Shown in pieces: positions 802 through 36,824 of a DNA stretch of 36,824 bases. Location of the stretch: positions 14,974,651-15,011,474 of the forward strand of contig NC_057753.1 in the NCBI RefSeq assembly GCF_004010195.1, given 5' to 3'. The notes under the pieces were generated by a model. That model saw nothing but the letters and a program-made list of their open reading frames with translations. It was not told the origin of the DNA and made no database searches. Position numbers and translations under genes: made by a program. The DNA is from Chiloscyllium plagiosum (taxonomy: Eukaryota). The stretch's first letter is position 1. Each line of letters starts with the position of its first letter.

Positions 802-1119
802 ATGAGAATTTCTGGCCAAGACTAGTGAATGGGGGAAGCCGCTGTGATGGCCGAGTTGAGATTTACTACAACGGTAGCTGGGACACAGTGCAAGACACCC
901 TGTGGGATCTGAGTGAAGCTGACGTTCTCTGCAGACAGCTCGAATGTGGACATGCTTTGGAAACGTATAACACCTCAAAATATGGAGACAGTAGTGAGCG
1001 TGGGACCGTACATAGTGTCCAGTGTCACGGACAGGAATTGCTTCTCCGGGACTGCAATATCTCCAACACATTGAATCAGTTTGTCTCCGACAGCACTGAT
1101 GTTGGCGTCCTCTGCTCAG
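802..1119 (+). CDS. Copy A SRCR exon A1 (6-Cys variant lacking the C2/C7 pair) of a CD163/WC1-like group-B SRCR receptor
   Basis: ttacag|AT...TCAG|gtgagg; 318 nt, phase 1-1; translates DENFWPRLVNGGSRCDGRVEIYYNGSWDTVQD...CRQLECG...QCHGQE...DC...VGVLCS, no stop. Confidence 0.93.
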
Positions 1120-1149
1120 GTGAGGAGACAGTTCACAGCTAAACATTTC

Positions 1150-1727
1150 TTGTTGCAGCTGTGCAAAACTCTGGTGTGGCAACTTTGGAGTATTGCATAC
1201 AGTTCTGGTCACCACATTGTGGGAAGGATGTGGAAGATTTGGAAAGGGTTCAGAGGCGATGTACGAGGATGTTGCCTCGAATGGAGGGAAGGTCTTATAA
1301 GTAAAGGCTAAAGGACTTGAAGCTGTTTTTGTCAGAGATAAGAAGTTTGAGAGGAAACTTAATTGAGACAGGAAAGATTAGATCGGGTGGACAATGAGAT
1401 CCTTTTTCCTCGGAATGTGATGGCCAGCACGGGAAGACATCATATAAAATTGAGGGGAGATAGGACAGATGTTAGAGGTAGTTTATTTCCTCAGAGTGTA
1501 GAAGGGACGTGGAACACTCTGCTTGCAACAGCAGTGGGTTCACTGACTTTAAGGGCTTTTAAGTGGTCAATGGATAAACATGTGAACGAAAATGGATTAA
1601 ATGGACAAATATATGAATGAAAATGTAGTAGGGTAGGATATTTAGTCTTCAGATTGTTTTCAGTGGTCAGCACGACACTGAGGGCCGAAGGGCCAGTACT
1701 GTGCTGTAATGCTCATGTTCTATGTTT
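1150..1727 (+). mobile_element. CR1-type LINE 3' fragment, decayed
   Basis: LEYCIQFWSPH-like and ERVQRRCTRMLP-like ORF2 C-terminal motifs; tgttctatgtt tail. Confidence 0.85.
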
Positions 1728-2020
1728 TAAACCTGCTGTAAGATATCAAATCAGATTTCGTTCTTCTGAGCAGATTGAAAATGTGCTGGAATTGTTCTTC
1801 CGTATTACCCAGAACAATGATTTAACACTGTGGTGGAAGCAGTCATGGACCAGATGGATGCTTGTGAGGAACTCAGCATTTTTTGCAAGATAAAAACCAA
1901 AACAATTTTATGATTCAGAAAGTAAAACTGACACAGATATATGAGAGAGTCGTTAGTATGGGGAGATGTTTCAGGATGAATATCTAAACTTGTTCACTAC
2001 GGGCTGAAGTTCGTATTTGA

Positions 2021-2355
2021 TGCACAAGAAGACACATTCTGTATTCAACAGTTGTCTTGAGATAATTAGCACAGGAAACTGATTTGAAAAGACGCATGGG
2101 GTATAAGTGCATAGAGGATAGAGGGCTTGTGAGGATACACCGAATACAAGAGACCAAGACATAAATGTTGACACGGATTTGTGAAGGGTAGGTCTTGCCT
2201 TTGCACAAGAAGACACATTCTGTATTCAACAGTTGTCTTGAGATAATTAGCACAGGAAACTGATTTGAAAAGACGCATGGGGGATAAGTGCATAGAGGAT
2301 AGAGGGCTTGTGAGGATACACCGAATACAAGACACCAAGACATAAATGTTGACAC
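2021..2355. repeat. 154-bp direct duplication (2021-2174, 2202-2355) with 27-bp filler
   Basis: one mismatch seen (gagacc/gacacc). Confidence 0.95.
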
Positions 2356-3377
2356 TTCAAGGCAACTATGACCATGTGACTATTTTTCCATCGCAACCAT
2401 TTCCATCTTGTTATCATCGTCTCCTGCCATGCAATAAGTCGAAAGGTGAATTATTCTGTCCTGAATCAAGACTTTTCCATTTGACCAGGAGGTGAGTTTC
2501 CTGTCCATGCCATATCTAAAGCCCTTCGTTTGCACCATTTTAACATTGGTTAACCTCACCTTTAATTCAACTGATGTACAGCTGAGATTCGCATCCTGTT
2601 GCCTGGACTAATCCATTGCTCTCCGACTACCTCCCCCCATGTTACCTTCTGGAAACCTGTGTTAATTAATAACTACTGTGTCCTTGAGCAATCTCAGTCT
2701 ATGTCTGGTTCCTTAATTGCCATGTGCACAGTGCTGTACATTCCGTCGCAGTTAACATAGCTAATAAATTCCTATCACTCTGACCATTGTTTCCCACTTA
2801 ATGTACCGATCATTGAATTCCTACGATAGGCTTAGTGATATACTTAACAGCAGGTAATACGATTGCCTAAGTCTGCCAGTATCGAGATTCCTCTTCGAAA
2901 CCCCCCTTTGTCTTCACCTGTCTTTACTTCAACCTGAAAAGCTAACACTTGGTTATGTTTTGTATATTGTTGAGCAGCTTTATATGAAGTTTGGAGCAGT
3001 GTCCCTTATGTCTCTGTGTTGTAATGTTTTATTCTGATTTACCTGTAGTTTTAAATGTTGAAGTTGAAGGACGTATGAGACAGGCTTTATATCGGGCGTA
3101 ATGTGATGGGTGCAGTCAAATGACAATCAATTGGTCAAGACATATATTGAGACGTTCATGCAATAATTATTTGATAAAATCATTTTATTGCTGCACATTC
3201 ATGGGAAAATAACTGATTTTATCGATTAACATTGACAGCTGTTGCATTTCATGCTTTTATGCACATTTCACAGGAAAATATGAAACCGCATTTTGCCTGA
3301 TTCTATGCATAATGCTGGAATGAACAAACAGGGCAGTGGGGATTGAAACTGAAATCGTCTGTGTTATTGTCTAACAG

Positions 3378-3695
3378 AACACATCCAGTTAAGGCTGTCA
3401 GATGGATGGACCCGCTGTGCTGGTCGATTGGAGATTTACTACGGAGGCATATGGGGCTCCGTGTGTGATGATGCTTGGGATGAGATAGATGCTCAAGTGG
3501 TTTGTAAACAACTAGGTTGTGGAAAGACCCTGGATATGACACCGCATTTTTCCTTTGAACCCGGCTCAGGCCCAATTTGGTTGAAAGATGTGAAGTGTTC
3601 TGGAAACGAATCACTTCTTTGGGAATGCCCGTCAGCACAATTGGGTCAGCAAGACGACTGTTCTCATAAAGAGGATGTGAGAATTGTATGCTCAG
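3378..3695 (+). CDS. Copy A SRCR exon A2 (8 Cys)
   Basis: ctaacag|AA...TCAG|gtaag; 318 nt, phase 1-1; EHIQLRLSDGWTRCAGRLEIYYGGIWGSVCDDAW...CSHKEDVRIVCS. Confidence 0.95.
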
Positions 3696-4681
3696 GTAAG
3701 AAGACTCAGTGTTCTTGCTCTCCTTCAATGCAATATCCAATGATTCATACAGCATCAATCTCGTGAATTTGTGAGGATGCGCAACTGAGGCAGCATTTAA
3801 AAGCAGTGGTTCATGTCATGTCCATATTGCACAAAGTGATCAGAGCCATTATTTTATCTATACTGAACAATCTTTCGATGAAACCAAATCTCTATCTGAC
3901 ACGTGCAGAGCCAAGCGTCAAAGGCGCAATTGAGGTCCATTGTCACGACTCAGAGTGAATTAAATACTCTCCAAATTGATTTATTTGTAATAAACTCTAA
4001 TTTATGATCTTCAGACTTGTACTCAGAGACTAGAAATGTGGTTTTTATCTAAATATAACTCAATCGTGTCACTTTTCTACAACAGTTTGATGTTTATTTT
4101 GTGATATCACAGCATAATCAACCAAATAATTTCCACTGAACAGAATTAATTTTTTCCTCACTCATTACCGTGTATCTTTTCCATTGCAAATGATGCACAG
4201 TACTTGCCTTTTGAGCGATTTTTCGGAACTGTAACTCCGTAATTTGTTGTCAATCAGAATGCTTGAAATTGCTTCTGGGTCACCAAATGCAAATTGTTGC
4301 TCGCAATATTAAACCGCCATGACGTCTTCACCAGTTCAAAAAATGGATCGCCACTCTCAGTATTCTGAAAATCTGACAATCTACTTTGAACACAGACCTT
4401 CCTTTTTCTGTGAGGTTTATTCTCTACTATTTTTGCACGTTCAATCACTTCAAGGTTCCAGTCGGACATTTTTGAAAGACTTCTGAAACTACATGCACGG
4501 TCCAGGTTTTTTTGTCCTGCGTCTACTTGGTATTTCCACAAATTCTTAACGACGTTTCCCAAGTTATAGTGTGCACCATATTCATATGTCTCACTTGAGT
4601 TGCACCTCAGAGGGTAGTCACAGGTATGTACTGAAGACGTTGTCAATCTCTCAATTTGGTTACCTGTTATTGCATGAACAG

Positions 4682-4999
4682 AACACAAGGAGGTACGGTT
4701 GGCGAATGGAAAGCATCGCTGCCAGGGGAGAATAGAAGTGTTCGACAATGGGACCTGGGGAACGGTATGCTTGGAAAATCCAGATGGACGGAGTGCTGAA
4801 CGAATTTGTGAAGATTTCGACTGTGGTGACCTTTTGTCCATTGATTTTGACGCTCAGTCATTCGGAAAAGGGACGGGACCTGTTTGGCTCGGTGGGTTGG
4901 AGTGTCTGTCGCACAGGTCGGCTGTGCGGCAATGTCAGGCAGATCCCTGGGGCCGTTGCAGCTCTGGACAGTTGGAAAATGCAGGTGTCTTTTGTTCAG
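4682..4999 (+). CDS. Copy A SRCR exon A3 (divergent, C7 shifted)
   Basis: gaacag|AA...TCAG|gtaac; 318 nt, phase 1-1; EHKEVRLANGKHRCQGRIEVFDNGTWGTVC...DPWGRCSSGQLENAGVFCS. Confidence 0.93.
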
Positions 5000-5082
5000 G
5001 TAACACAACAAACTTTCTCAAGGTCTGGCTGTCATTTCAGTAGTGACTTCCAATGAGCTCATCATGTTTCTCCCCTTAACAG

Positions 5083-5139
5083 AGAGAAATGTGACAAAGG
5101 AGCAGAGCCTCAATTCAAATTCCTGCGATCAACGATCAG
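5083..5139 (+). CDS. Copy A interdomain linker micro-exon (ERNVTKEQSLNSNSCDQRS)
   Basis: ttaacag|AG...TCAG|gtgcg; 57 nt, phase 1-1, open; same length and splice sites in copy B (27670-27726). Confidence 0.8.
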
Positions 5140-5225
5140 GTGCGTCCTCTTAATGAGTGCGTCAGCTCTGGGAATGGGGTTTCTGCTTTGCACTTCGTTC
5201 AATAATAATCAATTCTTTGCCACAG

Positions 5226-5543
5226 AGCCACAACACAGCGTGCGCCTGGATGGAGGACGCAGCAACTGTTCTGGGAGAGTGGAGATCATGTGCGATAAAC
5301 GTTGGGGCACGGTGTGTGGTGATTCCTGGGATATAACTGACGCCAATGTTGTCTGCAGACAGATGGGATGTGGGTTTGCTGTATCGGCCGGAGGAGGGGC
5401 CCCGGTCTCCCTGAGTGAAGGTGTGATCTGGCAGAATGATGTGAAGTGTAAGGGAAGTGAATCCTTTCTCTCCGACTGTCTCTCCCCAGCCCCAGCTCAA
5501 ATGGAGTGTAATCACAAGGAAATTGCCAGTGTGATTTGCTCTG
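5226..5543 (+). CDS. Copy A membrane-proximal SRCR exon A4 (9 Cys)
   Basis: ccacag|AG...TCTG|gtaag; 318 nt; EPQHSVRLDGGRSNCSGRVEIMCDKRWGTVCGDSW...CNHKEIASVICS. Confidence 0.95.
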
Positions 5544-5662
5544 GTAAGAACAAAGCTGACTGGCGCCGACCCGTGGTTATTAAATGCTGAAAATTAGTGC
5601 TAGCCTTTGTCATCCTAAATTAAGTTTCACGTTCATGAATATTTATGCAATCTCTTCCACAG

Positions 5663-5704
5663 AATTCGAGTTGTTGCTGACTTCCCCTTCACCTCCACCT
5701 GCGG
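5663..5704 (+). CDS. Copy A Pro/Ser-rich stalk micro-exon (EFELLLTSPSPPPA)
   Basis: cttccacag|AA...GCGG|gtattt; 42 nt, phase 1-1; conserved in copy B (28253-28294). Confidence 0.75.
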
Positions 5705-5887
5705 GTATTTAACATTGTTACTTTTATTAATATTTATGTCAGCGTTACTTTCATGGCTAGTGGCATTGACGCTCTTGGCATTTTTCGATTTCCGAATTTA
5801 TGTCAATGTTTTCTTATTGTTGAATTCTTTCGAACCTTACACGCAGATTGTATCTAATATGAATTTCTCTGCAATCTCTTCTTCAAG

Positions 5888-6004
5888 GACAGGAAAGTAA
5901 ACCTATTTCTACACCTGTTGTCGTCGGCCTAACCTTGGGAACCCTGTTAATCTGTGAGTTGTTCGCACTACTGGTGGTAATGCAGAGAAAGTTAGAAATG
6001 AAAG
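5888..6004 (+). CDS. Copy A transmembrane exon (GQESKPISTPVVVGLTLGTLLICELFALLVVMQRKLEMK)
   Basis: cttcaag|GA...AAAG|gtgaac; 117 nt, phase 1-1; ~22-aa hydrophobic stretch followed by basic QRK; not in the ORF track. Confidence 0.88.
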
Positions 6005-7299
6005 GTGAACCTCATATCTACTGACTGAGCTTACACTGAGACTGTTTTATACTTCCATATGGTATGGGGGCTGTTGCATTTTTATGGCAACTCTCCATTA
6101 CTTGGCTTCAATTGTGGTGATTGTGGGGCGTTTTCTAGATACTTGCTTTCTTCAAGAAGCTTGACCCGTTGAAATGTTAAATTTAAAATTGAGGCAAAGA
6201 TAAAACTCTTCAACAATGTAAATAGGCGCTAAAATGTGATACAAATCACATCAAATATTTATCAAGTTCTTTCACATCTATAGAGAGAACAAAATGTAAA
6301 ATTAGCGTGGTGTTCTCCCGAATTATTGTCAATAAGAAGGAAATGCAATGACTAAATCACTCTTATTTTTCCGTTTGCATGTACATGACATTCCAGAACA
6401 ATTTACTCATCATTGCACTGTGTCTACAAGATCCATTAAGGCGTATACACAGTGCGCTAGTTATTTATTCATCAGTTAGTTTTATAGTTCTTCACTTCTT
6501 GGATGCTGATGGCAGAACCCAAGATCAGCGTAAAGATTAAGATTTTTTTTGTTCGTTCAGTCATCCAACAACTGGCTTCTCGTCACTGATGAGATGACAC
6601 TTGTTCACATTTTACACAGGCTTCAAAGGATTTACCTTGGAGCAATTCACCTCTTGATGCCCATAACAATAAAGACGAATAACAAAAGATATATTTTTGA
6701 ATACTTTTGTACGTTTTCTTAAGTTTAGTTTGTATTAGCAAACAAAAGCATGCACTTAATTTATCATTTTCAATGTTAGTAAGGTTCTCCTGATTTCACG
6801 TTTCTCACGTTATTGCATCCGACTAATTACAATAAATACACACTTATCTGATTACAACACCTGAAATCTAATAAAGATACTTGCCCCCCGCCCCCCTTTT
6901 TTTGCTACGTTTATCTTCAGCATTGAATTGTGACCTCCTATGGTCATCCACATTCTTAAGCAATTGTCTACAAATTATCGGTAGGTTCTCCACGTTATTA
7001 AGTTGAGAAATTTTAATTTCAGTCGTCAGTGCAAGATTGTGAGCTGAGAATGGTCTTAAATAAGCATTTATATAAGTAAAATTCGAATAGAACTGGCCAG
7101 ACACATCCCAACAAGCAGCATCTTACTTTGTGTGGTTAACATCGTAAGTATCAGTGATCTTTCCACGTTGTGCGAAGATTCACTTCTCCAGGACTGCATG
7201 AACTACAACTCTTCACACTAATGTAGCTTCGGAGGTAAACACCATGTTGCTGCGAGTGGTCAGCTACAAATGCTGAGCTGTATATTTTTCTTTCAACAG

Positions 7300-7407
7300 A
7301 ACCTCACACTGGCGACAGAGACCCCAATCTTGGTTTGTACCAAGGAATTTATGAAGAAATTGAAGATATTCCCCCTGCACAGAAGACGGATCCGAAACAT
7401 GGATCAG
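7300..7407 (+). CDS. Copy A cytoplasmic exon 1 (EPHTGDRDPNLGLYQGIYEEIEDIPPAQKTDPKHGS)
   Basis: strong polypyrimidine tract tttttctttcaacag|AA...TCAG|gtacg; 108 nt, phase 1-1; YEEI motif. Confidence 0.85.
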
Positions 7408-7876
7408 GTACGTATTTCCTAATTTATAGTCAGTCATAATTCGATAAGGATGGCTTTCATCCAACTTCCAGTTTTCAATCATCAGTGAACTGTAAGGACA
7501 TGATTAGTTATCAATTAATTGTGTTGAAAGTTATCACAGTGAATGAATCACAGTCTGTGTTGAATGAGATGAAGAATTGCACTTTGACAATTCTCACTGC
7601 CTTTCATTCCAGAAACATTATTTCTGACATTTGTAAATACCAACAGAACTATCCTTTCTAATTCGATACTGGCTCCACTCTGATTACTTCAGATAACTGA
7701 ACACTAAATTCATTCCCTGACTTATTTTGCAATGATAAAATTATTGTCACGACTCTCAGTTACACAGCACCTAATATTGCAAGTTAAGCTGAGGAATTCC
7801 TATGCAAATAGATACGAACAATCACAGAGGTGCAAACAGTGCAGACCGAAGCGCTTTGGTTCATCGTGTCTACACC

Positions 7877-9820
7877 AGTTCTAAGATCTATAAATAGCAC
7901 TAAAACGAGATGTTTGACTTCTATAATGTTTCGTGATTGATAATGTGGGATGCATATATATGTAACAAATGCATAGACGCGATTCCTGCCCACCAAGAGT
8001 GCAAAAAACCCCAATGGGGAGGATTCCCTTGTGAATCTGGTGACGCAGATTGAGATGCATCAACTAGAAAATAGAATAAAATAAACAACGGGAGATTGTG
8101 ATCTTTGACCTAAGAATTGTGACTATAAAAATGGAAAGCAACATTACATGATCTGAGATAAAAATGATTGATTAATATTTCCAACACAGAATACTACAGA
8201 AATTAAAATTAAATAAAAGCATTCTCAAAGATTGGCACACTGCCATAATCAGATGAGTTTAAAGAACATTTAATAGATTAAAGAAATTTAGATTGTTTTA
8301 CAGAAATAATAACACTTAAAGACAAATTGGACAACATTGAAAGTAGTTGTCAGGGAAACTGAAGCAATTCAATTTACTTGATCATATACGCTTAACAAAT
8401 GTCAAAGACTACAAATTAGGTGATTAAGTGTATTGTGTGTAAAATTGTGTGATCGTTGTGAGAACTGAAATTTGTTTCCAACCTCTCATCACAGCGATTT
8501 TGCATTGCAATTCACCTTAAAGCGGTGCAATTCGTGCTTCGAGGGCTTTCCCATAATATGCTCCATTGACGGTATTCTGGCTGTCATTACCGTGATGATA
8601 AAATAATGATGTTTTCTTATTTTAACGCTCCTCCATTAGATGTAAAACCATTGTCTACTACGCTGAGAGATATAGGATTCGACCTTGATCGTTTTGCTCA
8701 GTGAGCCTGCTCTGTTCGTCAATTGCGGCTGACAGGTTTCTCAAACCCAATCTCCTGCCATTTCCCTGGAAGCTTTTGTTCTCTTACTCATCACGGAGCT
8801 AATTGTCTCCACCTTGAAGACACTCAGTGACCTCGCCTCCACAGCCTCAGTTCTAATATCTATAAATAGCACTAAAACGAGATGTTTGACTTCTATAATG
8901 TTTCGTGATTGATAATGTGGGATGCATATATATGTAACAAATGCATAGACACGATTCCTGCCCACCAAGAGTGCAAAAAAACCCAATGGGGAGGATTCCC
9001 TTGTGAATCTGGTGACGGGCATTGTGATGCATCAACTAGAAAATATAATAAAGTAAACAACGGGAGATTATGACCTTTGACCTAAGAATTGTGACTATAA
9101 GAATGGAAAGCAACATTACATGATCAGAGATAAAAATGATTGATTAATATTTCCAACACAGAATACTACAGAAAAGAAAATTAAATAAAAGCATTCTCAA
9201 AGATTAGCACACTGCCATAATCAGATGAGTTTAAAGAACATTTAATAGATTAAAGAAATTTAGATTGTTTTACAGAAATAATAACACTTAAAGACAAATT
9301 GGACCACATTGAAAGTAGTTGTTAGGGAAACTGAAGCAATTCAATTTACTTGATCATATACGCTGAACAAATATCAAAGACTACAAATTAAGTGATTAAG
9401 TGCATTGTGTGTAAAATTGTGTGATCGTTGTGAGAACTGAAATTTGTTTCCCACCTTTCGTCACAGCGATTTTGCATTGCAATTCACCTTAAAGCGGTGC
9501 AATTCGTGCTTCGAGGGCTTTCCCATAATATGCTCCATTGACGGTATTCTGGCTGTCATTACCGTGATGATAAAATAATGATGTTTTCTTATTTTAACGC
9601 TCCTCCATTAAATGTAAAACCATTGTCTATAACGCTGAGAGATATAGGATTAGACGTTGATCATTTTGCTCAGTGAGCCTGCTCTGTTCGTCAATTGCTG
9701 CTGACAGGTTTCTCAAACCCAATCTCCTGCCATCTCCCTGGAAGCTTTTGTTCTCTTACTCATCACGGAGCTAATTGTCTCCACCTTGAAGACACTCAGT
9801 GACCTCGCCTCCACAGCCTC
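7877..9820. repeat. 972-bp tandem duplication (7877-8848, 8849-9820); each unit ends in a minus-strand CR1-like remnant
   Basis: direct reading; scattered substitutions between units. Confidence 0.95.
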
Positions 9821-9943
9821 TGCATCAATGCGTTTCACAGATTCACTACCCTCTGGCTGAAGGAATTTTGATTCATTGCAGTTCCCTCAGGTTGTGCCTT
9901 CACGAGATTGAATTTTACATTAACCCTCCCCTTGTATTTTTAG

Positions 9944-10051
9944 GAATTTCCATTGACTCAGTCAATCACATTGAATACTGCACCAGCCACAACGTCAGTG
10001 ACAATAGTCTGGAAGCAGAAAATCCTGGGGTGAACTTCAACAGTATTCCAG
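9944..10051 (+). CDS. Copy A cytoplasmic exon 2 (GISIDSVNHIEYCTSHNVSDNSLEAENPGVNFNSIP)
   Basis: atttttag|GA...CCAG|gtatg; 108 nt, phase 1-1; paralogue at 32955-33069. Confidence 0.82.
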
Positions 10052-10199
10052 GTATGCATGTGTTCACTTTCTGTCAGTTCACATTTGTCTTTCAATCAAT
10101 CCGCCATCCAAAGCAAAAAATGTCAATGTTCACAACAATCTAGAATGATGCCGCCACCAAAGGCTGTTTCATTAGCATTGTCAGTGAAAAAAAAAGTTG

Positions 10200-10800
10200 C
10201 TGGTTTGGAGATAGAGAGACATGGCCCATGAGTACTTCTCCGTGAAATGTTTTAATTATTCCATTAACTATTCTCATCCCATATCCCAGCACTTGGCCCG
10301 TAGACTTATATGACTTGGATTCACACCACCTCGATGGGTGCATCAATAAGGAGGTTTGGAAGGTTATGGGTCTTGTGCTGTCTAATGAGATTAAATCACT
10401 TCAGGATATGGTCAGTACGGACACTTTGGCCTGAAGGAGCTGTTTCCATGTTGTGTAATTCTATGATTCCATGTACGAGTAAACACTTCTTAAATCCTAT
10501 GAGAATTTGTTCTTCCACCGCCCTTACAAGCGGTTAATTCCGGATTTACAGTGGCGTCCGTCTCAAAACATTCTCCCTCACCGTTTCTTGATTTCTCCCA
10601 TCGCTTACCTGACCTCCTCTTATCTTACATCTAACACCTCCGTTCTTTGAGCTCTCCAGCAAAGAGAAAAGTTCCTTCCTTGCTATCCCACCCGTGTCCA
10701 TCATAATTTCATAATGCATTTCAACGTGTCCCCCTTTAAAGTCCTCAATTCCACTGGAAAAAAATAAAATAGAAACAGCTTTTCTGCAACTCATCCCCTA
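10200..10800 (-). mobile_element. Decayed CR1-like LINE fragments
   Basis: minus-strand ORF remnants (RKELFSLLESS..., YEIM) resemble the CR1 ORF2 end; paralogous sequence at ~33230-33600. Confidence 0.5.
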
Positions 10801-13476: not shown

Positions 13477-13553
13477 AGTGTGGCGATATCATGTTTGCGC
13501 TGGAAGTCTGTGTCTCTTTGTGAGTGTCAATGCCACAGTGAATGCGTGAGTGC

Positions 13554-26101: not shown

Positions 26102-26204
26102 GTAAGGCCACTCTCTGTATTGCTATTCACCTTTTTATGTGAGTCTTTATGAACTGCTGTATAGTGAATTAGAGAGTATGTGCAGCAAAGACAGCGACTC
26201 AACA

Positions 26205-26588: not shown

Positions 26589-27320
26589 TGGATATATTTC
26601 TTCACCTGCATTCGAGTGTCCTTCCATGAGTATATTCCTATATGAAATGCATGGCAAGCTATACGGTAAAGAAGTCAATAATGGTTCATTGTTAATATTC
26701 TGGGGAAAGTTAATATCTCCAAAAATGTTTAAAAAGATATATTCAGAATGAACTGCTACTTACGATCTTTAGTTCTGTAGCCAGCCATCAGGATTGTCCT
26801 TCCTGTCTGTGTATCCTTCAATCTCTCAGTGGCTCTATATCAGATTGATTCTGAGTCGCAGAAAGTGCATATCCTCTTTACACTTTGCTCCAGATTTCCC
26901 CACATTCGACTGAACTGAATTAAAATTCATGCTGGGCACTCATGCTGGCCATTTATTCTGATTCACTTGTGTTTTTTATTTGCGTGATATTTCCTGATGT
27001 GTCACCATACTTCCTAAGTCATTGTCAATCGGAATGTTTGAAATTGCCTTGGGGATACCAAATCCAAATTGCTGATCCAATACTAAACAGGCATGACGTC
27101 AGCCCCAGTTCCAGTGGATCTTCCACTCTTCAGCAAATCTGACAATCTCCTTTGACCACAGACTTTCTATTTTCGGTCAGTTTAGTTTCCCTACAACTTT
27201 GCAAACTGAATGTGTTCAAGATTCTATGAGCACTTTGTTGAATGTACTTTGAAATCCCATGTGCCTTGCATATTCTGCCCTGCTTCTACTTTCAATGTCT
27301 CGGAGTTCTTCGAAACGTTT

Positions 27321-27589
27321 AGTGGAAGTGTTCTACATCGGGACGTGGAGAACGGTGTGCTCAGAAAGTCTCGAGCTCCACGATGCTGAAGTAATCTGTA
27401 AACAGTTGCACTGTGGCTCTGTCCTGTCCATTGACTATTACGTTCGAGTATTCGGAGCAGGAACGCGACCTATTTGGCTCGATGAGATTGATTGCCCATC
27501 ACATGCGTCTGCCCTGTGGCAGTGTCAGAGAGATCCGTGGGGCCAACACAACTGCAAGCACATGGAAGATGTAGGTGTTGTTTGTTCAG
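27321..27589 (+). pseudogene. Copy B SRCR exon B5 (paralogue of A3), 5'-deleted
   Basis: starts abruptly at VEVFYIGTW; the acceptor and first ~17 codons present in copy A are missing; donor TCAG|gtatc intact. Confidence 0.88.
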
Positions 27590-27669
27590 GTATCACAAGA
27601 TTCTTAACATTCGGGTGTCATTTCAAACACCGATTTCGAATAGAGTCAGCATCTTTCTCCTCTCTCCAG

Positions 27670-27726
27670 AGAGCAATGTGGCGAAGGAGCAACCGCACAG
27701 GTCAAATTCCTGCCATCAGGAATCAG
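27670..27726 (+). pseudogene. Copy B linker micro-exon (ESNVAKEQPHRSNSCHQES)
   Basis: 57 nt, intact splice sites, homologous to 5083-5139. Confidence 0.78.
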
Positions 27727-27812
27727 GTGCGTCCACATCATGAACGTACCAAATCTGGGAATGATGTTTCTGCTTTGTACTGCATTCAATATTACTCAAT
27801 TCTGTGCCACAG

Positions 27813-28130
27813 ATTCGCAACATAGCACGCGCCTGGATGGAGGAAGCAGCAACTGTTCTGGGAGAGTGCAGATCATGTGCGATAAACGCTGGGGCACGGT
27901 GTGTGGTGATTCCTGGGATATAACTGATGCCAATGTTGTCTGCAGACAGCTGGGATGTGGCTTCGCTCTATCGGCCCGAGGAGGGCCCACTGTCTCCCAG
28001 GGGAAAGGTGTTATATGGCAGAATGACGTGAAGTGTAAAGGGAGTGAATCCTGTCTGTCCGACTGTCTCTCACCAGCACCAGCTCTAAACGAATGCCATC
28101 ACAAGGAAGTTGCCAGTGTGATCTGTTCTG
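27813..28130 (+). pseudogene. Copy B membrane-proximal SRCR exon B6 (paralogue of A4), itself intact
   Basis: 318 nt, open frame, canonical AG/GT; 18 amino-acid differences from A4 by hand count. Confidence 0.88.
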
Positions 28131-28630
28131 GTAAGAATGATGCTGACTCACTCGTGTTGATCGGTGATCATTAATATTGCACATTTGTGCAACCATTACA
28201 TTTACGCAGTTTAATTTCTCATTGATATATATGTGTACAATCTCTTCCACAGGATCCGGGTTGTTGCTGACTTCCCCTTCATCTCCACCTGCTGGTATTT
28301 ATAATTGGGCCCACTGTCTCCCAGGGGAAAGGTGTTATATGGCAGAATGACGTGAAGTGTAAAGGGAGTGAATCCTGTCTGTCCGACTGTCTCTCACCAG
28401 CACCAGCTCTAAACGAATGCCATCACAAGGAAGTTGCCAGTGTGATCTGTTCTGGTAAGAATGATGCTGACTCACTCGTGTTGATCGGTGATCATTAATA
28501 TTGCACATCTGTGCAACCATTACATTTACACAGTTTAATTTCTCATTGATATATAGGTGCACAATCTCTTCCACAGCATCCGTGTTGTTGCTGACTTCCC
28601 CTTCACCTCCACCTGCTGGTATTTATAATT
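27983..28630. repeat. 324-bp tandem duplication (27983-28306, 28307-28630) copying half of SRCR exon B6 and the stalk exon
   Basis: direct reading. Confidence 0.95.
28253..28294 (+). pseudogene. Copy B stalk micro-exon (GSGLLLTSPSSPPA); duplicated at 28577-28618
   Basis: 42 nt, homologous to 5663-5704. Confidence 0.72.
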
Positions 28631-28803
28631 CATACTGCTAATAATATTTGTGTTCGAGTTAAGTTCCTGACTAACGATATTGATGCTGTTCGCATATTCA
28701 AGACTTGGAAGCTAATTGTCATTGTTTTCTTAATGATGATTATTTGCAACTTTCCAAGGCATCCCCTAACTAAGCTAAATCTGTTTGTAATCCCTCCTTT
28801 GTG

Positions 28804-28920
28804 GACAGGAAAGTACATCGATTTCCATGCCTGTTGTTGTCTGCTTAACCTTGGGAGTCCTGTTAATCTGTAAGTTGGTCGCACTACTGGTGGTCACGCA
28901 GAGAAAATTACAAATGAAAG
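28804..28920 (+). pseudogene. Copy B transmembrane exon (GQESTSISMPVVVCLTLGVLLICKLVALLVVTQRKLQMK), acceptor lost
   Basis: homologous to 5888-6004; acceptor ctttgtg versus cttcaag; donor AAAG|gtgagc. Confidence 0.85.
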
Positions 28921-29515
28921 GTGAGCGCCACATCTACTGATTGAGCTAACACTGAGCCAACACTGTTCCATGTGGTCTCAGGGCTGAAGATTGTTATTAC
29001 ACTTTTCCATTGTTTGGCCTAGATGACAATGAGTGTGTGGCCGTTCCGAGCTATTTGTTTTCATCACGGATATTTATCCAATGAAACGCCAAGGTGAAAT
29101 ATTGATTAAATCGTTCAATATTAACGTTTGAAGCGGAGTTGCCCCAAGTCATTATCACTCAGAAAGAAATGTAAAGACTGTACATTCTTATGTTTCAGTT
29201 AACCTGTGCACAACAGTTCAGTACAAGTTGTTGATTGCAGCGATATGTCTTGAAGTTTCACTGAATCATTTTCACACTGCCTCTAAATGTTTATTCATTA
29301 GTTACTAATCGTTTGTGCTTCGTCAGTTTCTGGGTGCTGATGCCAGAACCAAAGATTAGTGACAGGTCCTCTAATGGGAATTTCCAGTCAAGCACCAACT
29401 GGGTTCCCTTGACTGAGCAGCTGACCCTTCTTTACTTTTCACAGCGATTGAAAAATCCTTTGGCTGAGAGCCATTTTCTACTATGTGGCAATGTCAGCCA
29501 ACACCAATAATGATT

Positions 29516-29714
29516 TGGAGATGCCGGTGTTGGACTAGGGTGTGTAAAGGTAAAGATAACACAGCACCAGGTTATAGTCCAACAAACTTAATTGGAAGCA
29601 TACTAGCTTTCCGAGAGCCTCTCCACCTGATGAAGGAGCGGTGCTCCGAAAGCTAGTGTACTTCCAATTAAACCTGATGGACTATAGCCTGGTGTTGTGT
29701 GACTTTTAACTTTG
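29516..29714. mobile_element. Penelope-like inverted-repeat (hairpin) insertion with 16-bp target-site duplication
   Basis: arms ~29546-29618 and ~29642-29713 are imperfect reverse complements; flanked by aacaccaataa(t/c)gatt at 29500-29515 and 29715-29730. Confidence 0.75.
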
Positions 29715-30446
29715 AACACCAATAACGATTATTTTCTATACATTTGACATGTTGTTAAATTTACTTTGCATGTACTAATGAAACGTATGGACATAGTTTA
29801 TCCTTACGACTCTCAAAAAAAGTTCTCCTTATTTCATTTGTCTCAGATTTTTACAGTTATCTAATTGTGATAAGCATGTACTTGTATCATTAAAACATTC
29901 CAACAGCATTGTTATCCACTAATTGTTTGACGGAACACTATCTAAACACTGATTTGTACCCGCCTCACGGTGACGAAAGTTTTTAAAATTGCCCACAAAT
30001 TATTAAACTTTTGGTTTGTTCCTTGCATTACGGAGTTTCAATTTCTGCAGTCAGCATTTACGTTCACAAGTAGCATTGCGAGCTGTCAATTTTCAATAAC
30101 TCTTGGTTACACAGCAAAACTGAGTGGAAGCAAAATTCAGGAATTAATGCGCAAATATGTATGGTGAATTACAGAAATGTGAACAGCTCAGACTGAACCC
30201 TTTCGATACATCGTGTCTATTTCGATTCTTTGCAACCAAAGAATAATAATCAAACGATTTTTATTAGATTATATGATTGTACTAGACAGCTAATGTGGGA
30301 ACATTGGATACGTGGATACTTCGTCAAATAGTGACATCCTTCATGTCTGCAAAGTTTGTGGAATTGGTGATGGTGAACGAGAAATATCATTATAGAGAAT
30401 AGAATTAAGGTAGCAACTGGGAATTTTGATATTGACATAAATATCA

Positions 30447-30805
30447 TGGAACATTGAACACTGCAGCGCAGTACAAGCCTTTCGGTGCTCGATGTTGCGC
30501 CGACCTGTGGTATCAGTCTGAAGCCCATCTACCCCACATTATTCAGTTCACGTACATACCTGTATCCAATGACCATTAAATACCCTTGAAGTTGCAGGCA
30601 GTGCGTTCCACGCCCCCACTCCTCTCTAAACAAAGAAACTACCTCTGGCATCTGTCCTGTTTCTATCATCTCTCAATTTAAAGCTATATCCCCTCATTCT
30701 AGCCATTACCATCCAAGGAAACAGGGTCTCACTATCCATCCTGTCTAATCTCCTGATTGTCTTGTATGTCTCAATTAAGTCACCCCTCAACCTTCTTCTC
30801 TCTGT
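30447..30805 (-). mobile_element. CR1-type LINE 3' end
   Basis: ERRRLRGDLIETYKTIRRLDR...RGYSFKLR motif; gaacattgaaca tail. Confidence 0.88.
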
Positions 30806-31197
30806 CGTTGCTATGAAAATAGGACGGTCCATTACAGTATCGCAATCGAAATTATTGAGTCGGTTTTGGAACTCAACATATCACTGAAAATAAAGTTAAA
30901 TTAAACCATCCTTACAGGACAGCACACAACAGGATCACAGGCAAGAACATGTGGTGTAGTAGATTCACAAAATATGCACTTTGTCACAGAAATGATATCA
31001 GTTCAAGTCGTATCAGACACGTTGACTCTGCTGAGGAAACAGAAGGCATTCAGTTGACTTCATTCCAGTTTTCTCTGAACAAATGGTGGGGATTTCGAAT
31101 GAAGTCATTAAAAATACTTTGTGCAGAAGTGTCTCATTGCAGTGATTTAACATTTCACTTAATCTTGAACCACTGCAATATGTTCATTAAATGCTGC

Positions 31198-31444
31198 CAG
31201 TGACTAATGGCGTGCCACAGGGATCAGCTTTGGGACCACAACTAGGTAAAAATTACACAAGAAGATTTGGAGTTGGAGACCACGTGTAGTGTATCGACGC
31301 TAGTGGATGACGCTGACATGAGTGGTAGAGCAAAATATGCAGAGGACATGAACCTTTGCAGGGATGTGTAGTCAGTTTAAATGAGTGAGAAAAGGTCTCA
31401 TAGATGGATTGCAATGCTGATAAATGTGAGTTCCTCCATTTTGG
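31198..31444 (+). mobile_element. CR1 RT internal fragment
   Basis: VTNGVPQGSALGP and NADKCEFLHFG motifs. Confidence 0.75.
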
Positions 31445-32150
31445 AGTCTCTTGAGCTCGTTGTTGAGGACAGCTGATTTCCTTGAGAAGCTGATATCCTG
31501 GAGGATTTCTGAGAGTCCGGTCATCATTGTCTGGACGTTCCAACTTCCCAGTTTTCGAGCTGGTCTCTTTTGTTGTTTTCTTTTGTTGCTTGGTGCGGTG
31601 ATTGCAACCTGCTCTTCGGATAATTCCCAACCTCTGTGCACCCAATGAGGATAGCAGGTTGTGGCGGGACAGCATGTTACTGGCGGGGGCCTGGCCAACT
31701 TGAGGCAGGCGGTAGCTATCCCAGTGGGATCCAATAAGTCCCTCCCACCACCGGGCGGAACCGCTGGCGTCATGCTGTACGTCAATCTAACGATGACTTT
31801 GACTGGTATCTGCTGCCCAACCCCCACCCCGTGTTGTGTTGCCGCTGCAGGCGAAACTGGAGTGTCTTCTCCAGGTGCAATGGTGGTAGGATGTAAGCCG
31901 AGGTGGTGTGGTTCACCCTCTCCACAACACTGGCTAATCCAAAGGAACAGCAAAGCTGTTACAGTTTGGTACCAGCGCCGTCGCAGGAACTGCCAGAATG
32001 AGGTTGGAGATAACGACGAAATGCCTTTGGGGCCCCGACTCTGAATGTTTCCTCGAGGTTTCCTCCTGAAGCCTTTCCCATATATGGTTCTGCCAGCAAG
32101 ACAGCGGAGGTTTGAAATCAGAATTTTCCTTCTCTTTACCAGGAAACAGC
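31445..32150 (-). mobile_element. RTE-clade LINE 5' UTR plus start of the APE endonuclease
   Basis: KLGSWNVQTMMTGLSEILQDISFSRKSAVLNNELKRLQ matches the RTE N-terminal (WNVRT) pattern; GC-rich leader. Confidence 0.78.
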
Positions 32151-32159
32151 CCGCCTGTG

Positions 32160-32555
32160 GGCCTCTCCTAACCCTCCTTATCCACATCTTTCCGCAATCT
32201 TCTTATCCACACCTCTCCCAACCCTCCTTATCCACATGTCTCGTAATCTTCCTTTCCTTACTCAACTCCTATATCTTTTATATCCCCAATCTCCCTCCTT
32301 ACCCAACTGTCCCACATAACTTACATCATTGTAAGTCTCACTCTCACGCCCCCACCCCCAAACCAGGTCTCTGCCCCACTCCCATCTTTCTCTCTCCCTC
32401 ACCCTCCACCATCTGACCATGTTTCTCTACCCCAGATCCCATTCCTCTTTCTGCCAAACTGACCCCTCCCCATCTCACCTGCTGTTACCCCCCAGACCCC
32501 AACCTCACACCGCCACCCCTCTGGATCTCTTTCTGACTCTCGCCCCCGCCTCCAG
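32160..32555. repeat. C/T-rich low-complexity tract
   Basis: pyrimidine-rich; accctccttatccacat at 32171 and 32221. Confidence 0.7.
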
Positions 32556-32954
32556 TACGTTTGTAGAGTCGGGTAATGGCAATGTTCGAGTTCTAGAAGC
32601 ACAGCCAAAGCTGCTGTAGCTGGGCCTTGGCCTCACGTTCTCTGGGACTGCTGTCAGGCTCGGGCACCTTTCTTGTCATTGGGCCCATCGAGTGTATTCT
32701 GCCATTCGATCATGGCTGAGGTGAGTCTCAACGTCTTCCTTCTACCTTCTACATGGAAATTCTTATCCCCTCGTCAATCAATAACCATTTTATTTCTGTC
32801 TTAAAGATGCTCACCGACTTGGAGTCCATAATCTTTTGCGTTCCATAGATTCGCCACCCTTAGGCTGAAGATATTTCACCTTATTACAATTCGAAAGAGC
32901 CAAGGCTTCACCAGGATATTGAACTTAACATTAACTCTCCATTTTTGATTTTAG

Positions 32955-33069
32955 CAATTTCTGCTTCCATTGATTCACTCAATCACTTTTGAATACTACA
33001 CCAGTCAGAACTTGAGAGAAACTGATCCCGAAATGGGAAATCCTGAGGTCAACTTCAACAGTATTCCAG
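32955..33069 (+). pseudogene. Copy B cytoplasmic exon 2 with a +1 frameshift
   Basis: homologous to 9944-10051; 115 nt; extra T in cacttttgaatac creates TGA. Confidence 0.82.
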
Positions 33070-33820
33070 GTGTGTACGTGATCACTTTCTGACAATTCGC
33101 TTTTGTCCTTCACTTTCTGTGCCGACCAAACTTTAAAGATGTGAAACGTCACAAGACTGAGGAATTGCAATGTCACGACTGGCTGTTTCATGAGGCAGAT
33201 CAAGTCGAAAGAAAGTTGCTGTTTTTGTACCACGTGTTCATGGACATGGTTCATCCAGTCAGAGCCTGTCAAAAGCAGACTCAAATTATTCCAATTGCAA
33301 TTACCAGCACACTTGACCCATAGCCTTGTATGTCTTGGCATCTCACGTGTACCACTGAATACTTCTTAAAAGTTATGAGTGTCTTTTGTCTCTATCGCCC
33401 TTACAGGTGGCGAGTCGCAGATTCACAACAGCTTCTGGGGGAAGATAATTTTCCTCCCATCCTCTTTACTTCTCCCATCACTTTATTAAAATCGATGGCC
33501 CTGATCTTTGATCTCTCCACCAAAAAGATATGTTCTTTCCTGTCCTCACCACTTATATCCATCATAATTATATCATGTACCTCAACTATGGCCGCTACTC
33601 TGTGTCCACTGCTCCAAGTCATTCAACAGGAAGATATGTGCAGCTGTAAATTGCTTAGCCGCTCTAAGCTCTTCCTCCATTCAATGAGATGATTTCTGTC
33701 TATGGTGTGACCTAAATCCAGATATCTGTCTTTGAACAACATCCCTTAACACATTTGATCCACAATAATCTAGCTCGCATTTAAAATTAAGAATTGATCG
33801 AACATCAACTGTCTTTTGGG

Positions 33821-34231
33821 GAACATAAGACATAGAACACAGAACGTAGAACATAGAACAATACAGCACAGAACAGGCCCTTGCGCCCTCAATGTTGCGC
33901 CGACCTGTGAAGTATTCTCAGTTCGTCCCCCTCCACTATCCCAAAATCATCCATGTGCTTATCTAAGGATTGTTAAAATCTCCCTAATGTGGCTGAGTTG
34001 ATTACATTAGCAGATGGGACATTCCACGCCCTTACCACTCTCTGCGTAAAGAACCTGCCTCTGACATCCGATTCAAATCTATCACCCCATCAATGTGGAG
34101 CTATGCCCCCTCGTACAAGCTGACGTCATCATCCTAGGAAAAATACTTTCACTGTCTACCCTACCTACTCCTCTGATCATCTTGTACGTCTCTATCAAAT
34201 CCTCTCTTAGCCTTCTTCTTTCCAATGAGAA
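33821..34231 (-). mobile_element. CR1-type LINE 3' end with (TATGTTC)n tail
   Basis: repeated gaacata units; related to 30447-30805. Confidence 0.88.
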
Positions 34232-34347
34232 TTCTAAACTTTGTACAGATCCTTACTCTTGCTTGGATCCTTGCTGAACGGTCTGACATGAGCTACTAAA
34301 ATATACGGCCTAGATCTGGAATAGCCCCACCAATTGATATTGGTTTT

Positions 34348-34847
34348 NNNNNNNNNNNNNNNNNNNNNNNNNNNNNNNNNNNNNNNNNNNNNNNNNNNNN
34401 NNNNNNNNNNNNNNNNNNNNNNNNNNNNNNNNNNNNNNNNNNNNNNNNNNNNNNNNNNNNNNNNNNNNNNNNNNNNNNNNNNNNNNNNNNNNNNNNNNNN
34501 NNNNNNNNNNNNNNNNNNNNNNNNNNNNNNNNNNNNNNNNNNNNNNNNNNNNNNNNNNNNNNNNNNNNNNNNNNNNNNNNNNNNNNNNNNNNNNNNNNNN
34601 NNNNNNNNNNNNNNNNNNNNNNNNNNNNNNNNNNNNNNNNNNNNNNNNNNNNNNNNNNNNNNNNNNNNNNNNNNNNNNNNNNNNNNNNNNNNNNNNNNNN
34701 NNNNNNNNNNNNNNNNNNNNNNNNNNNNNNNNNNNNNNNNNNNNNNNNNNNNNNNNNNNNNNNNNNNNNNNNNNNNNNNNNNNNNNNNNNNNNNNNNNNN
34801 NNNNNNNNNNNNNNNNNNNNNNNNNNNNNNNNNNNNNNNNNNNNNNN
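34348..34847. other. Assembly gap (500 N)
   Basis: run of N; the round length suggests a placeholder of unknown size. Confidence 0.99.
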
Positions 34848-36603
34848 TCGTTGGCTGATAGATATTATCATGGTAATTAATTCACCGTTCTGTCCCTTCC
34901 TTGCGACCCTTCTCAATCTCAGAACTTTCACGTTGCTGTAAATTTATCTTGCCTTCGTAACACGTTGTATTTTGCATGGTATGCACTTTGTCAACTGTCT
35001 GATTCACTACATTCCAATATGAAATACTGTGCACCTTTTGTCCGAAATCGTAACATTATTGCCTGTTACTCTTTCGATGATCAATTGGCAGGTCCCGTAA
35101 TTTCTTTCGTTTGCTGCTTTGTTCATCAAGTAATATTCTCGTACACCTCTATCAGTTCCAGCTTCATTGCTTCAATATGATCCATAACCTGTACAATACA
35201 CATTAGTCGAAAATAGAAGCCTGTTCGCGTATCTCTTCGAGTATGCATCTCCTCAAGAGCCAGGACACACTTTGTCAATTATGTGTTCCACATAATCATA
35301 AACAATGTTTTCCTATCTTCGCCAACGGAAACGAATTATTTCTCTCTTTCTGCCCTAAATGCTTCTATTCTTAAATTTAAGTTTAAGTTGCATTGCTGAC
35401 TCCTCTACCAAGTATTCTGTCAACTTGATGTATCTCAGCTTTTGAAGCTCCAGCACTTCTGTCTAAGTGCACTTATTCACAACATGAAGAGGGAAAAGGT
35501 GAAAACATCTAAATGCACGTTGTATGTCATTTTCCAGGCTGCCAAAATATACTGCCTCAAACTGCTTTGCTTAAAGTTTCATCTGTCACTTACTTATCTG
35601 TTCTGCTCTCTTTGCATGCTCTACTGAAATTGGGAGATGTCATGAATAATGGTTTGAAAACATTGATGCATGGTACCAGGGGCTAATTTTGAAGTGTTAC
35701 TCTGCATTTCAATGCAAATTCGGGGAAGTCCATGTCACATTCTACCAAACGGTACACTTTCACAGGTTATAATTGATTTCATTACTGTATGTTCGATGGG
35801 ATAATAAAGGTTAATATTATTGAAACTGCATATTGCAGCCAGCATCTGATGCACTGGTCATGATTTGGTCACCTGGACGCTCAACATCTTACTGTACAAA
35901 AAAACTTTTAACATTATAATTATCTCAATTGCCTCAAACTTGTAAACTCATTTGTTGCCCATGTTTCAGAAATTGCTTTCAAAAATAATTATTTAATACA
36001 TTCGCCTAGTTAGCTGCACTGTATTGTAACACCCTGATGGAATCGACTACCTCAGTGGGCTGAATGACTGGTCTTTGATATAAGGTAATGCCATCAGCGT
36101 TGTTTCATTACCCCCACAATCTGAAGTTGCCATGATGGTCCTCACCTTCTGAGCTCAACCCTCGGCTGATGAATAGTGACCATCAGGTTAAATCACCATC
36201 AACCACATCTCTCTAACAAGAATGCAGCCACGTATTCATCAGTAAATTGAGTTAAGCATTACTGCATGATTGCAAAAGTCAATCTAACCTGCACGAGCAA
36301 TCGGGACCAAAAGTACACTGCTGTTATCAAACTATGGACTGCATCAAGTCAACCTTTACACCCTCGTTTCATAGGTTTTCCAGGACTGAGGTAAATGATC
36401 ATAATCACTATCTTGGGAATACCCTTTAAATGGGAATAGTGGAAAGAGTTTCATGAAATAATCGTAATTATTTTGAAGACATTGTAACTGTCACGTATTG
36501 TATTGGGCAATGGAGGATGAGATTCGATTTATTTTCTCTTTTGAATCTTGAACAAGTGCGTGGATATTTGCAAACGTTTGTTTCTTTATTTGATCCAAAA
36601 CAG

Positions 36604-36824
36604 GAAACAATGGTCCCCGATTGGTTGGTGGGGAGAACAGGTGCTCTGGGCGAGTGGAGGTCCTGCATGGAGAGCAGTGGGGAACGCTGTGCGGTGTTTA
36701 CTTTGACTTACAAGACGCCAATGTGGTCTGTGAACACCTTTTTTGCGGGACTGTAAAGTCGATCCCGAGAGATGCTCGATTTGGGAGGGGAGCCCGACCA
36801 GTGTGGAAGGAAAACTATGAATGC
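36604..36824 (+). CDS. SRCR exon of a probable third paralogue (copy C), cut by the window end
   Basis: aaacag|GA then GNNGPRLVGGENRCSGRVEVLHGEQWGTLCGVYFDLQDANVVCEHLFCG...VWKENYEC, open to the edge; this frame is not in the ORF track. Confidence 0.88.

Follow-up and report, generated by a model that had tools for sequence, protein, structure and literature searches.

A tandem cluster of probable WC1/CD163c-like scavenger receptor genes in the shark Chiloscyllium plagiosum

Introduction

The closest described relatives of the genes treated here, a tandem cluster of putative receptor genes in the shark Chiloscyllium plagiosum, are WC1, SCART and CD163, which are built from scavenger receptor cysteine-rich (SRCR) domains belonging to group B. 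The cluster lies in a stretch of 36,824 bp (assembly GCF_004010195.1, contig NC_057753.1, positions 14,974,651 to 15,011,474), and this whole stretch is called the window in the following. According to the available passages of the family survey of Herzig et al. 2010 (PMC2906472), the domain order is a-b-c-d-e-d-b-c-d-e-d' in WC1, m-l-b-c-n-d-e-d' in CD163c-alpha and h-i-j-k-b-c-d-e-d' in CD163A, chicken hybrids contain a plus c-n-d-e-d', and the motif Y-(Q/E)-(D/C/E)-(I/L) is common to the tails of WC1 and CD163c-alpha. The WC1 gene plan, as given in the accessible part of PMC2681482, encodes the tail in four exons and gives one exon apiece to each domain, to the inter-domain piece and to the transmembrane (TM) segment. 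WC1 binds Leptospira, joins the gamma-delta T-cell receptor (TCR) on activation and needs phosphorylation of tail tyrosines (PMC8356672, excerpt), and an m130-like gene marks a gamma-delta T-cell cluster in cod (PMC9276791, excerpt).

In the excerpted text of PMC2906472 the family survey reaches back only to chicken and platypus, and an ancestral multigene state was already proposed in 2010. The full-text literature searched, with subscription papers outside its coverage, yielded no description of WC1/CD163c-like genes in cartilaginous fish; PMC9207270 and PMC6238376 name CD163 only in their reference lists. The shark gene itself is already annotated, under a nearest-hit CD163-like name. Here, we present evidence from domain trees, gene structure and spliced transcripts that points to a place of the cluster in the CD163/WC1 family, and we weigh what the encoded receptors may do.

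Cluster layout and unit A

A scan of 15 window pieces against Pfam family PF00530 gave 11 above the cut-off, namely all 11 SRCR exons, which lie on the + strand; the four TM/tail pieces gave no match. The SRCR exons are distributed over three + strand units arranged head to tail, which we call A, B and C. Units A and B are collinear (69-79% DNA identity, offsets 20.1-23.0 kb) and C is a third unit, so that the three same-strand paralogous units of the initial annotation stand in outline, with the corrections that A is incomplete in the window and that the start of C had been misplaced. Within the window, types 4-7 are seen in A, types 1, 2 and 4-7 in B, and type 3 in C (exon at 36604). Together these are the seven types, 1-7, that make up the seven SRCR domains of the full-length unit model P0131, as expected from the earlier count of at least seven exon types. 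With 100-110 amino acids, six to eight cysteines and one exon per domain, the domains have the features of group B.

The window enters unit A at its fourth SRCR exon, and types 1-3 lie upstream of the window; the description of this unit as intact holds for what the window contains. The ten exons tested between 802 and 12953 are all in phase 1, flanked by AG..GT and divisible by 3 in length, and a further exon of 57 nt at 5083-5139, between the third and fourth SRCR exons, obeys the same phase rule, in agreement with the one-domain phase-1 exons noted initially. From the four SRCR domains across a Pro/Ser/Thr stalk and a hydrophobic helix into a tail that has four tyrosines, the frame is open; it ends with a stop at 12951-12953. 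Furthermore, the unit A exons match RefSeq XP_043538437.1 ('M130-like') of Chiloscyllium plagiosum at 100%; the cartilaginous fish suspected from the sequence thus has a named record. The features of unit A are as follows.

802-1119, + strand: SRCR type 4, n-like position, without Cys2 and Cys7 (frame, Pfam, joint to next exon)
3378-3695, + strand: SRCR type 5, d-like (frame, Pfam; best PDB stretches are CD163 domains 7 and 9)
4682-4999, + strand: SRCR type 6, e-like, this copy without Cys7 (frame, Pfam, trees)
5083-5139, + strand: inter-domain exon of 57 nt between types 6 and 7 (joint 5139>5226)
5226-5543, + strand: SRCR type 7, membrane-proximal, d' by position (frame, Pfam, tree test)
5663-5704, + strand: Pro/Ser/Thr stalk exon (joint 5543>5663 in runs X1 and X2)
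5888-6004, + strand: transmembrane exon, Cys-Glu pair within the helix (open frame)
7300-7407, + strand: tail exon 1, tandem YQGI-YEEI motif (joint to next exon)
9944-10051, + strand: tail exon 2 (frame, joints)
11330-11461, + strand: tail exon 3, YDDI motif (frame, joints)
12943-13337, + strand: last exon, stop 12951-12953, first AATAAA at 13332, transcript end inferred (frame, joint)

Read-through of the stalk exon donor (5663-5710) would hit a stop within three codons and would give a predicted secreted seven-domain form.

Placement of the domains

Domain letters were assigned by position in a sheep WC1 model (P0083) and in the CD163 part of a serow model (P0074), and three trees were computed from hand-picked domains: one of 103 out of 1,690 domains, one of 70 rows and one of the same 70 rows minus the Cys2/Cys7 columns (support is given as a pair of values per tree, in this order). 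All three place types 2 and 3 within the b+c clade, together with domains from coelacanth, teleosts, sheep WC1 and serow CD163 (100/97, 99/96, 99/96). Types 6 and 1 are placed less firmly. The former groups with the e domains (98/90, 99/63, 89/17), and the latter with WC1 domain a, for which a single sequence is in the trees (99/87, 99/92, and 88/86 minus the Cys2/Cys7 columns). Type 4 lacks Cys2 and Cys7 and stands directly before the d-e-d' block, in position and cysteine pattern like domain n of CD163c-alpha; in one tree it joins the teleost position-4 domain (100/95). A tree constrained to unite type 7 with d' lies 1.9 log units above the free tree and is not rejected. Type 3 came out with b (97/77, 99/88), which looked like a b/c swap in sharks, but the approximately unbiased (AU) test does not reject the positional order. 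PDB scores ranked CD163 over CD5L, CD6 and CD5.

The AU test rejects a single clade of all shark family domains (p 0.011), which indicates that the domain types predate the split of sharks and bony fish. We therefore regard the cluster as very probably part of the CD163/WC1 family within the SRCR receptors of group B. The architecture of WC1, CD163 and SCART recognised initially is upheld at the level of the family; it is not that of a strict WC1, and the unit may best be called a WC1/CD163c-like hybrid with the layout of the chicken hybrids, a-b-c-n-d-e-d'. By the same domain comparison, further family members seem to be recorded under other names: coelacanth P0110 and the teleost models P0079/P0091/P0065/P0070/P0111 are named DMBT1-like or M130-like and have domains of the b, c and e types.

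Many of the 30 shark proteins found with a tail profile (see below) are named 'DMBT1-like', and the trees do not set types 5 and 7 apart from generic SRCR domains, as one would expect if the units encoded DMBT1/SSC-type, mainly secreted or epithelial proteins and if the likeness to WC1 were generic SRCR similarity. The AU test rejects shark family domains together with DMBT1-type domains as one clade (p 0.002), in line with the grouping anticipated by the initial annotation. Moreover, a TM segment and a tyrosine tail are present, the tail exons are spliced, the Pfam listings of the 30 matches contain SRCR families only, with no CUB and no ZP, and the seven types are distinct and conserved instead of near-identical repeats. 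The DMBT1/SSC-type explanation is largely refuted by these data, and we consider it highly improbable. Matches in the ESM Atlas were generic SRCR or M130-like clusters only.

Membrane helix and tail motif

Among 36 shark family proteins, 29 contain a TM segment with a tyrosine motif (31 tails) and the other seven models are without such a segment. The 31 tails span Heptranchias, Heterodontus, Scyliorhinus, Mustelus and five carpet sharks; the six non-shark controls include neither SCART1 nor a chicken hybrid. The motif YEEI is present in unit A and in 30 of the 31 shark tails, the remaining one having YAEI, and it conforms to Y-(Q/E)-(D/C/E)-(I/L), the tail motif of WC1 and CD163c-alpha. In most shark copies a second tyrosine stands four residues before YEEI, and the tail of unit A, with about 130 residues, carries YEEI and YDDI.

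All 31 shark tails have Asp or Glu inside the predicted helix, mostly after Cys, compared with none of the six teleost and mammal tails. As the shark sequences are kin, this is one origin that was kept and not 31 events. Acidic membrane residues drive the assembly of CD3, DAP12, FcR-gamma and CD16A complexes. The residue, which is lost in the decayed unit B, might therefore make these CD163/WC1 members obligate complex subunits on whichever cell they occur, with a basic-residue partner or an ITAM adaptor (immunoreceptor tyrosine-based activation motif; as for CD16A or FcepsilonRI alpha), acting as signalling subunit or as stand-alone activating receptor. The partner is hypothetical, the control consists of six sequences, and self-association or quality control may be all that a conserved polar residue is needed for; we rate this arrangement as unlikely. 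A complex prediction with two copies of the TM region (P0131 836-900) received a score of 0.01, too low to be informative.

Transcripts and proposed function

Four sequencing runs were compared with the window from 600 to 17700. Contigs of run X2, for which the kind of run is unrecorded, contain six GT..AG joints of unit A where they were predicted: 1119>3378 (type 4 to type 5), 5139>5226 (inter-domain exon to type 7), 5543>5663 (type 7 to stalk), 7407>9944 (tail exon 1 to 2), 10051>11330 (2 to 3) and 11461>12943 (3 to 4). The joint 5543>5663 was also found in run X1, which comes from a separate study and is RNA by our guess. Depth in X2 is 30-119 at the joint contigs and about 9-16 in purely intronic bins, and the bin containing the TM exon has a depth of 36.9. 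The contig over tail exons 2 and 3 has a single mismatch to the window in 246 letters and thus stems from unit A and not from a paralogue. We read the six joints as spliced mRNA, as a retrocopy would need greater depth than the locus itself. In addition, one X2 contig (12953>13265) lacks the 311 bases that directly follow the stop codon; the ends of this skip are non-canonical, and the contig may represent a variant of the 3' untranslated region or a paralogue. Two single-cell runs, sampled to about 2% and 6%, gave 36 partly fitting reads, all on repeats, and 0 reads, respectively.

Given the family placement, we lean slightly towards a function as lymphocyte co-receptor. In a full unit, seven extracellular SRCR domains follow one another as a-like, b/c, b/c, n-like, d-like, e-like and d'-like and precede a stalk, one helix and the tail. 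From WC1 and SCART we infer a receptor on a leukocyte subset, most likely T cells, whose outer SRCR domains may bind microbial surfaces; clustering with an activating receptor would lead to phosphorylation of the membrane-proximal tyrosine and to a stronger signal. Paralogues with different ectodomains would arise by tandem duplication and later be lost. For the reading as a whole, duplicated WC1/CD163c-like receptors serving as leukocyte co-receptors, we see the chances as evenly balanced.

Several observations weigh against this reading, in its placement as well as in its function. The trees offer about 104 informative columns and hand-chosen rows, and contain no SCART1, chicken hybrid, CD5 or CD6 sequences; the AU test does not reject a tree in which WC1 a stands apart from type 1 (p 0.46), nor either b/c order (p 0.31-0.49), types 5 and 7 are left unplaced by the free trees, and type 4 does not join the teleost domain in the other two trees. 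Neither XP_043538437.1 nor the second RefSeq model of the window, XP_043538440.1, begins with a signal peptide, and no signal-peptide exon for the model of unit A was found in the window; the relatives P0151 and P0142 have a plausible signal peptide, with no matching exon in the window. The splice-junction check proposed in the initial annotation came out positive among SRCR, stalk and tail exons; the joints flanking the TM exon (linker to TM and TM to tail) are absent from the six of eleven joints listed. The runs with unit A joints carry no tissue or cell-type label. Paralogue diversity is not confined to type 1, unlike the situation in WC1 domain a. Finally, the shark marker sheet of 8,645 rows with RefSeq descriptions in the accessible part of PMC11372145 is without rows for 'M130', 'scavenger receptor' or 'deleted in malignant', and cd247 and cd8a are recovered as T-cell markers in the same sheet. 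The main text of this bamboo shark immune atlas, as far as it was available, mentions neither CD163, WC1, scavenger, SCART nor DMBT1. None of the whole clusters that this table covers in liver, spleen and kidney has the family as a marker; such an analysis would miss a small or variegated subset.

The same family and architecture would also suit myeloid (macrophage, granulocyte) scavenger or pattern-recognition receptors like mammalian CD163A and CD163b, in which the tyrosine motifs would serve endocytosis (YxxPhi) or myeloid signalling and not TCR help. We take YEEI and YDDI to fit the YxxPhi sorting consensus as well and count this for the myeloid alternative. With CD163A, a receptor of macrophages, the units have b, c and probably d, e and d' in common, so that the trees are blind to cell type, and in the available atlas table the family is not a T-cell cluster marker (PMC11372145); it marks no myeloid cluster of this table either. 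However, the trees show no shark counterpart for h-i-j-k of CD163A, the tail motif is that of WC1/CD163c and not YREM (PMC2906472, in part), and the cod relative was reported in T cells (PMC9276791, in part). On balance, a myeloid role appears rather unlikely, and the complex-subunit arrangement described above less likely still.

Unit B

Unit B (14960-33069) is a pseudogene, as recognised initially. Stop codons are found at 16382, 17495 and 21787, the acceptors of the type 4, type 5 and TM exons are lost, the 5' end of type 6 is deleted, tail exon 2 is frameshifted and a part of the unit is duplicated.

14960-14992, + strand: exon of 33 nt preceding SRCR type 1 (a contig of depth 3.4 joins 14984 to 16306)
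16308-16622, + strand: SRCR type 1, a-like, stop codon at 16382 (Pfam)
17187-17501, + strand: SRCR type 2 of the b/c clade, with a stop codon at 17495 (Pfam)
21548-21865, + strand: SRCR type 4, acceptor lost, with a stop codon at 21787
25784-26101, + strand: SRCR type 5, acceptor lost, open frame
27322-27589, + strand: SRCR type 6, 5' end and acceptor deleted (Pfam)
27670-27726, + strand: inter-domain exon
27813-28130, + strand: SRCR type 7, open (Pfam)
27983-28630, + strand: tandem duplication of 324 bp, covering the 3' half of type 7 and the stalk exon (the latter at 28253-28294 and again at 28577-28618)
28804-28920, + strand: transmembrane exon, acceptor lost, Lys where intact family members have the acidic residue
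32955-33069, + strand: tail exon 2, frameshifted

An exon with the YEEI motif was not recognisable in B, the best local alignment score of 77 lying below the shuffled maximum of 91, and window searches for a leader exon, a type 3 remnant and tail exons 1, 3 and 4 of B gave nothing above chance. Linker, stalk, TM and tail exons, initially ascribed to both units, are thus complete in A; in B the TM exon has lost its acceptor and the YEEI exon was not found. The missing type 3 need not be a lesion, as several intact-looking models of other species are also without it. By simple counting, dN/dS (the ratio of nonsynonymous to synonymous changes) between A and B is 0.24-0.47 over four exons, from which it follows that most of the divergence arose with both units under selection and that B was long constrained before it broke.

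Unit C, the assembly gap and the RefSeq models

Behind unit B the window contains an assembly gap and the beginning of unit C.

34348-34847, no strand: assembly gap of 500 N between the tail of B and the second intron region of C
36604-36824, + strand: SRCR type 3 of unit C, b/c clade, truncated by the window end (Pfam, domain type)

The DNA ahead of exon 36604 resembles the B intron after type 2 (18237-18847 versus 35105-35718, 68%). As the exon is of type 3 and is preceded by this match, the first exons of C lie in the 500-N gap or are lost; unit C does not start after the gap, as had been supposed.

In the second RefSeq model, XP_043538440.1 (P0125), the first 19 residues come from 33588-33644 and are followed by types 4-7, TM and tail. 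We infer that this latter part is the rest of unit C, beyond the window. The start at 33588-33644 is an intronic stretch behind B and the type 3 exon at 36604 is skipped; probably, XP_043538440.1 is a model patched across the gap. The N-termini of several other RefSeq models of the family (P0131 residues 1-55, P0124, P0133) look retroelement-derived, and the start of P0124 matches repeat fragments at 1227, 14216 and 20305.

Fragments of long and short interspersed elements (LINE, SINE) and other repeats lie at 1178-1700, 14050-14600, 20263-20760, 26208-26580 and 29520-29710, with very high contig depth where covered; the one near 26208 resembles the shark HE1 SINE. A tandem duplication of about 972 bp (96.6% identical) is located at 7876-9820 in the unit A intron between tail exons 1 and 2, and three shorter ones are seen at 2021-2355 (about 181 bp), 13554-13971 (about 201 bp) and 22044-22392 (about 183 bp). 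The 181-bp copy is skipped by one contig of run X2 and may be polymorphic or an assembly artefact.

Range and copy number among sharks

A search with one TM-plus-tail stretch returned 18 proteins, all from carpet sharks, and a profile of eight tails gave 30 matches out of 7,999 candidates scored and added Heptranchias, Heterodontus, Scyliorhinus and Mustelus. None of the matches of the tail searches comes from a ray, a chimaera or a bony vertebrate, a weak negative, as these searches need shared five-residue words. In the databases the family is named only 'M130-like' or 'DMBT1-like', labels as uninformative as had been predicted.

For every carpet shark, the majority of the models are on a sequence of one length, as one cluster would give, and the number of type 7 domains in the models used is three to seven per carpet-shark species, near-identical copies included. 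Many of the family models fuse adjacent genes. The domain content varies, with types 1-2 doubled, type 3 missing or a shortened domain after type 1. For this typing, shark-built profiles were restricted to shark proteins, as they are biased towards type 1 on non-shark proteins. Copy number, the decayed copy and the variable domain content fit birth-and-death evolution, which agrees with this part of the initial proposal. Mean identity between paralogues is 71.5% for type 1, 73.1% for type 4, 73.2% for type 6 and 81.8% for type 5. Variation mainly in the a-like domain was considered as a candidate feature and proved weak when tested (type 1 at 71.5% versus about 73% for types 4 and 6).

A second carpet-shark locus on another sequence is represented by P0142, P0144 and P0104, in which the domains are more divergent and the second SRCR domain is shortened to about 80 amino acids; this short domain is also present in models from Heptranchias, Heterodontus, Scyliorhinus and Mustelus.

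Implications

If the shark genes are relatives of WC1 and CD163c, the domain set predates the split of sharks and bony fish and the macrophage receptor CD163A is a late offshoot; the domain comparison suggests that the family moves to the base of the jawed vertebrates. On the same condition, the family would be a candidate source of surface markers and co-receptors for the T-cell subsets of sharks, for which markers are lacking, and single-cell data that already exist allow a test of whether the link of SRCR receptor arrays with gamma-delta T cells is ancestral. In the acidic membrane residue there is a pointer to a signalling arrangement not seen in the bony-vertebrate relatives examined. The surprise is moderate, as the CD163-like annotation, the proposal of 2010 and the gamma-delta relative in cod were already known. 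A bolder and decidedly doubtful extension would be that the jawed-vertebrate ancestor had a multigene a-b-c-n-d-e-d' family marking gamma-delta or innate-like T subsets, the source of WC1, SCART and CD163, and that the shark version, via its acidic residue and a partner receptor or ITAM adaptor, acts as a germline-encoded, paralogue-variable pathogen sensor in a complex of the antigen-receptor type.

Comparison with known systems

DMBT1 shares with the shark genes group B SRCR domains with one exon each. In contrast to DMBT1, the shark proteins have no CUB or ZP domain and no near-identical SRCR repeats, and possess a TM segment and a signalling-type tail. CD163A (M130) shares b/c and probably the block of d, e and d' and is the best match among solved structures; it differs in its h-i-j-k domains, of which the haptoglobin-binding j is absent in the shark, and in its YREM tail, and the shark family is multigene. 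The RefSeq name M130-like is a nearest-hit label.

CD163c-alpha, or SCART1 and SCART2, have in common with the shark units a six-Cys domain between the b/c pair and d-e-d', as well as the tail motif. Instead of m and l, however, the shark has one a-like domain ahead of the b/c pair, and it has multiple genes and not one or two. The single a-like domain is found in P0131, P0126 and P0143, by count and tree place without m/l references.

For ruminant WC1 (sheep WC1.1, P0083), type 1 seems to group with domain a and lacks Cys2 and Cys7, and the b/c and probably the e types are shared. As far as the excerpted WC1 literature describes it, the gene plan is similar too, with one exon per domain, an inter-domain exon before d', four tail exons and a tandem family; three units in the window and several models per carpet-shark assembly likewise form a multigene tandem array. 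The tail motif is YEEI in the shark and YEEL in ruminant WC1. Compared with a-[b-c-d-e-d]-[b-c-d-e-d'] or the six-domain swine type without n, the shark unit has seven domains with the extra n-like type 4; it has no long c-d linker, its diversity is not concentrated in domain a and its TM segment carries the acidic residue.

Teleost 'M130-like' proteins (loach P0079/P0091, eel P0065) show the same seven-step order ending in an n-d-e-d'-like block, a TM segment and a YEEI tail. They differ in that the acidic TM residue is missing in all three teleost tails and that a single EAVYEEI replaces the tandem YQ(G/A/V)IYEEI of sharks. The m130-like gene of cod, known to us from part of its report, would, if orthologous to the shark genes, be the nearest outside support for a T-cell role.

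The chicken WC1/CD163c-alpha hybrids (GgCD163_1, _8; PMC2906472, in part) come closest: they share the N-terminal a-like domain, the n-d-e-d'-like block, the multigene state and a Y-E-E-I/L motif. The likeness is one of described layout, and the acidic helix residue sets the shark apart. As the extra domain distinguishes the unit from a strict WC1, the lack of m and l from SCART and the lack of h-k from CD163A, we assume that the hybrid layout of chicken is the most fitting description for the shark receptors.

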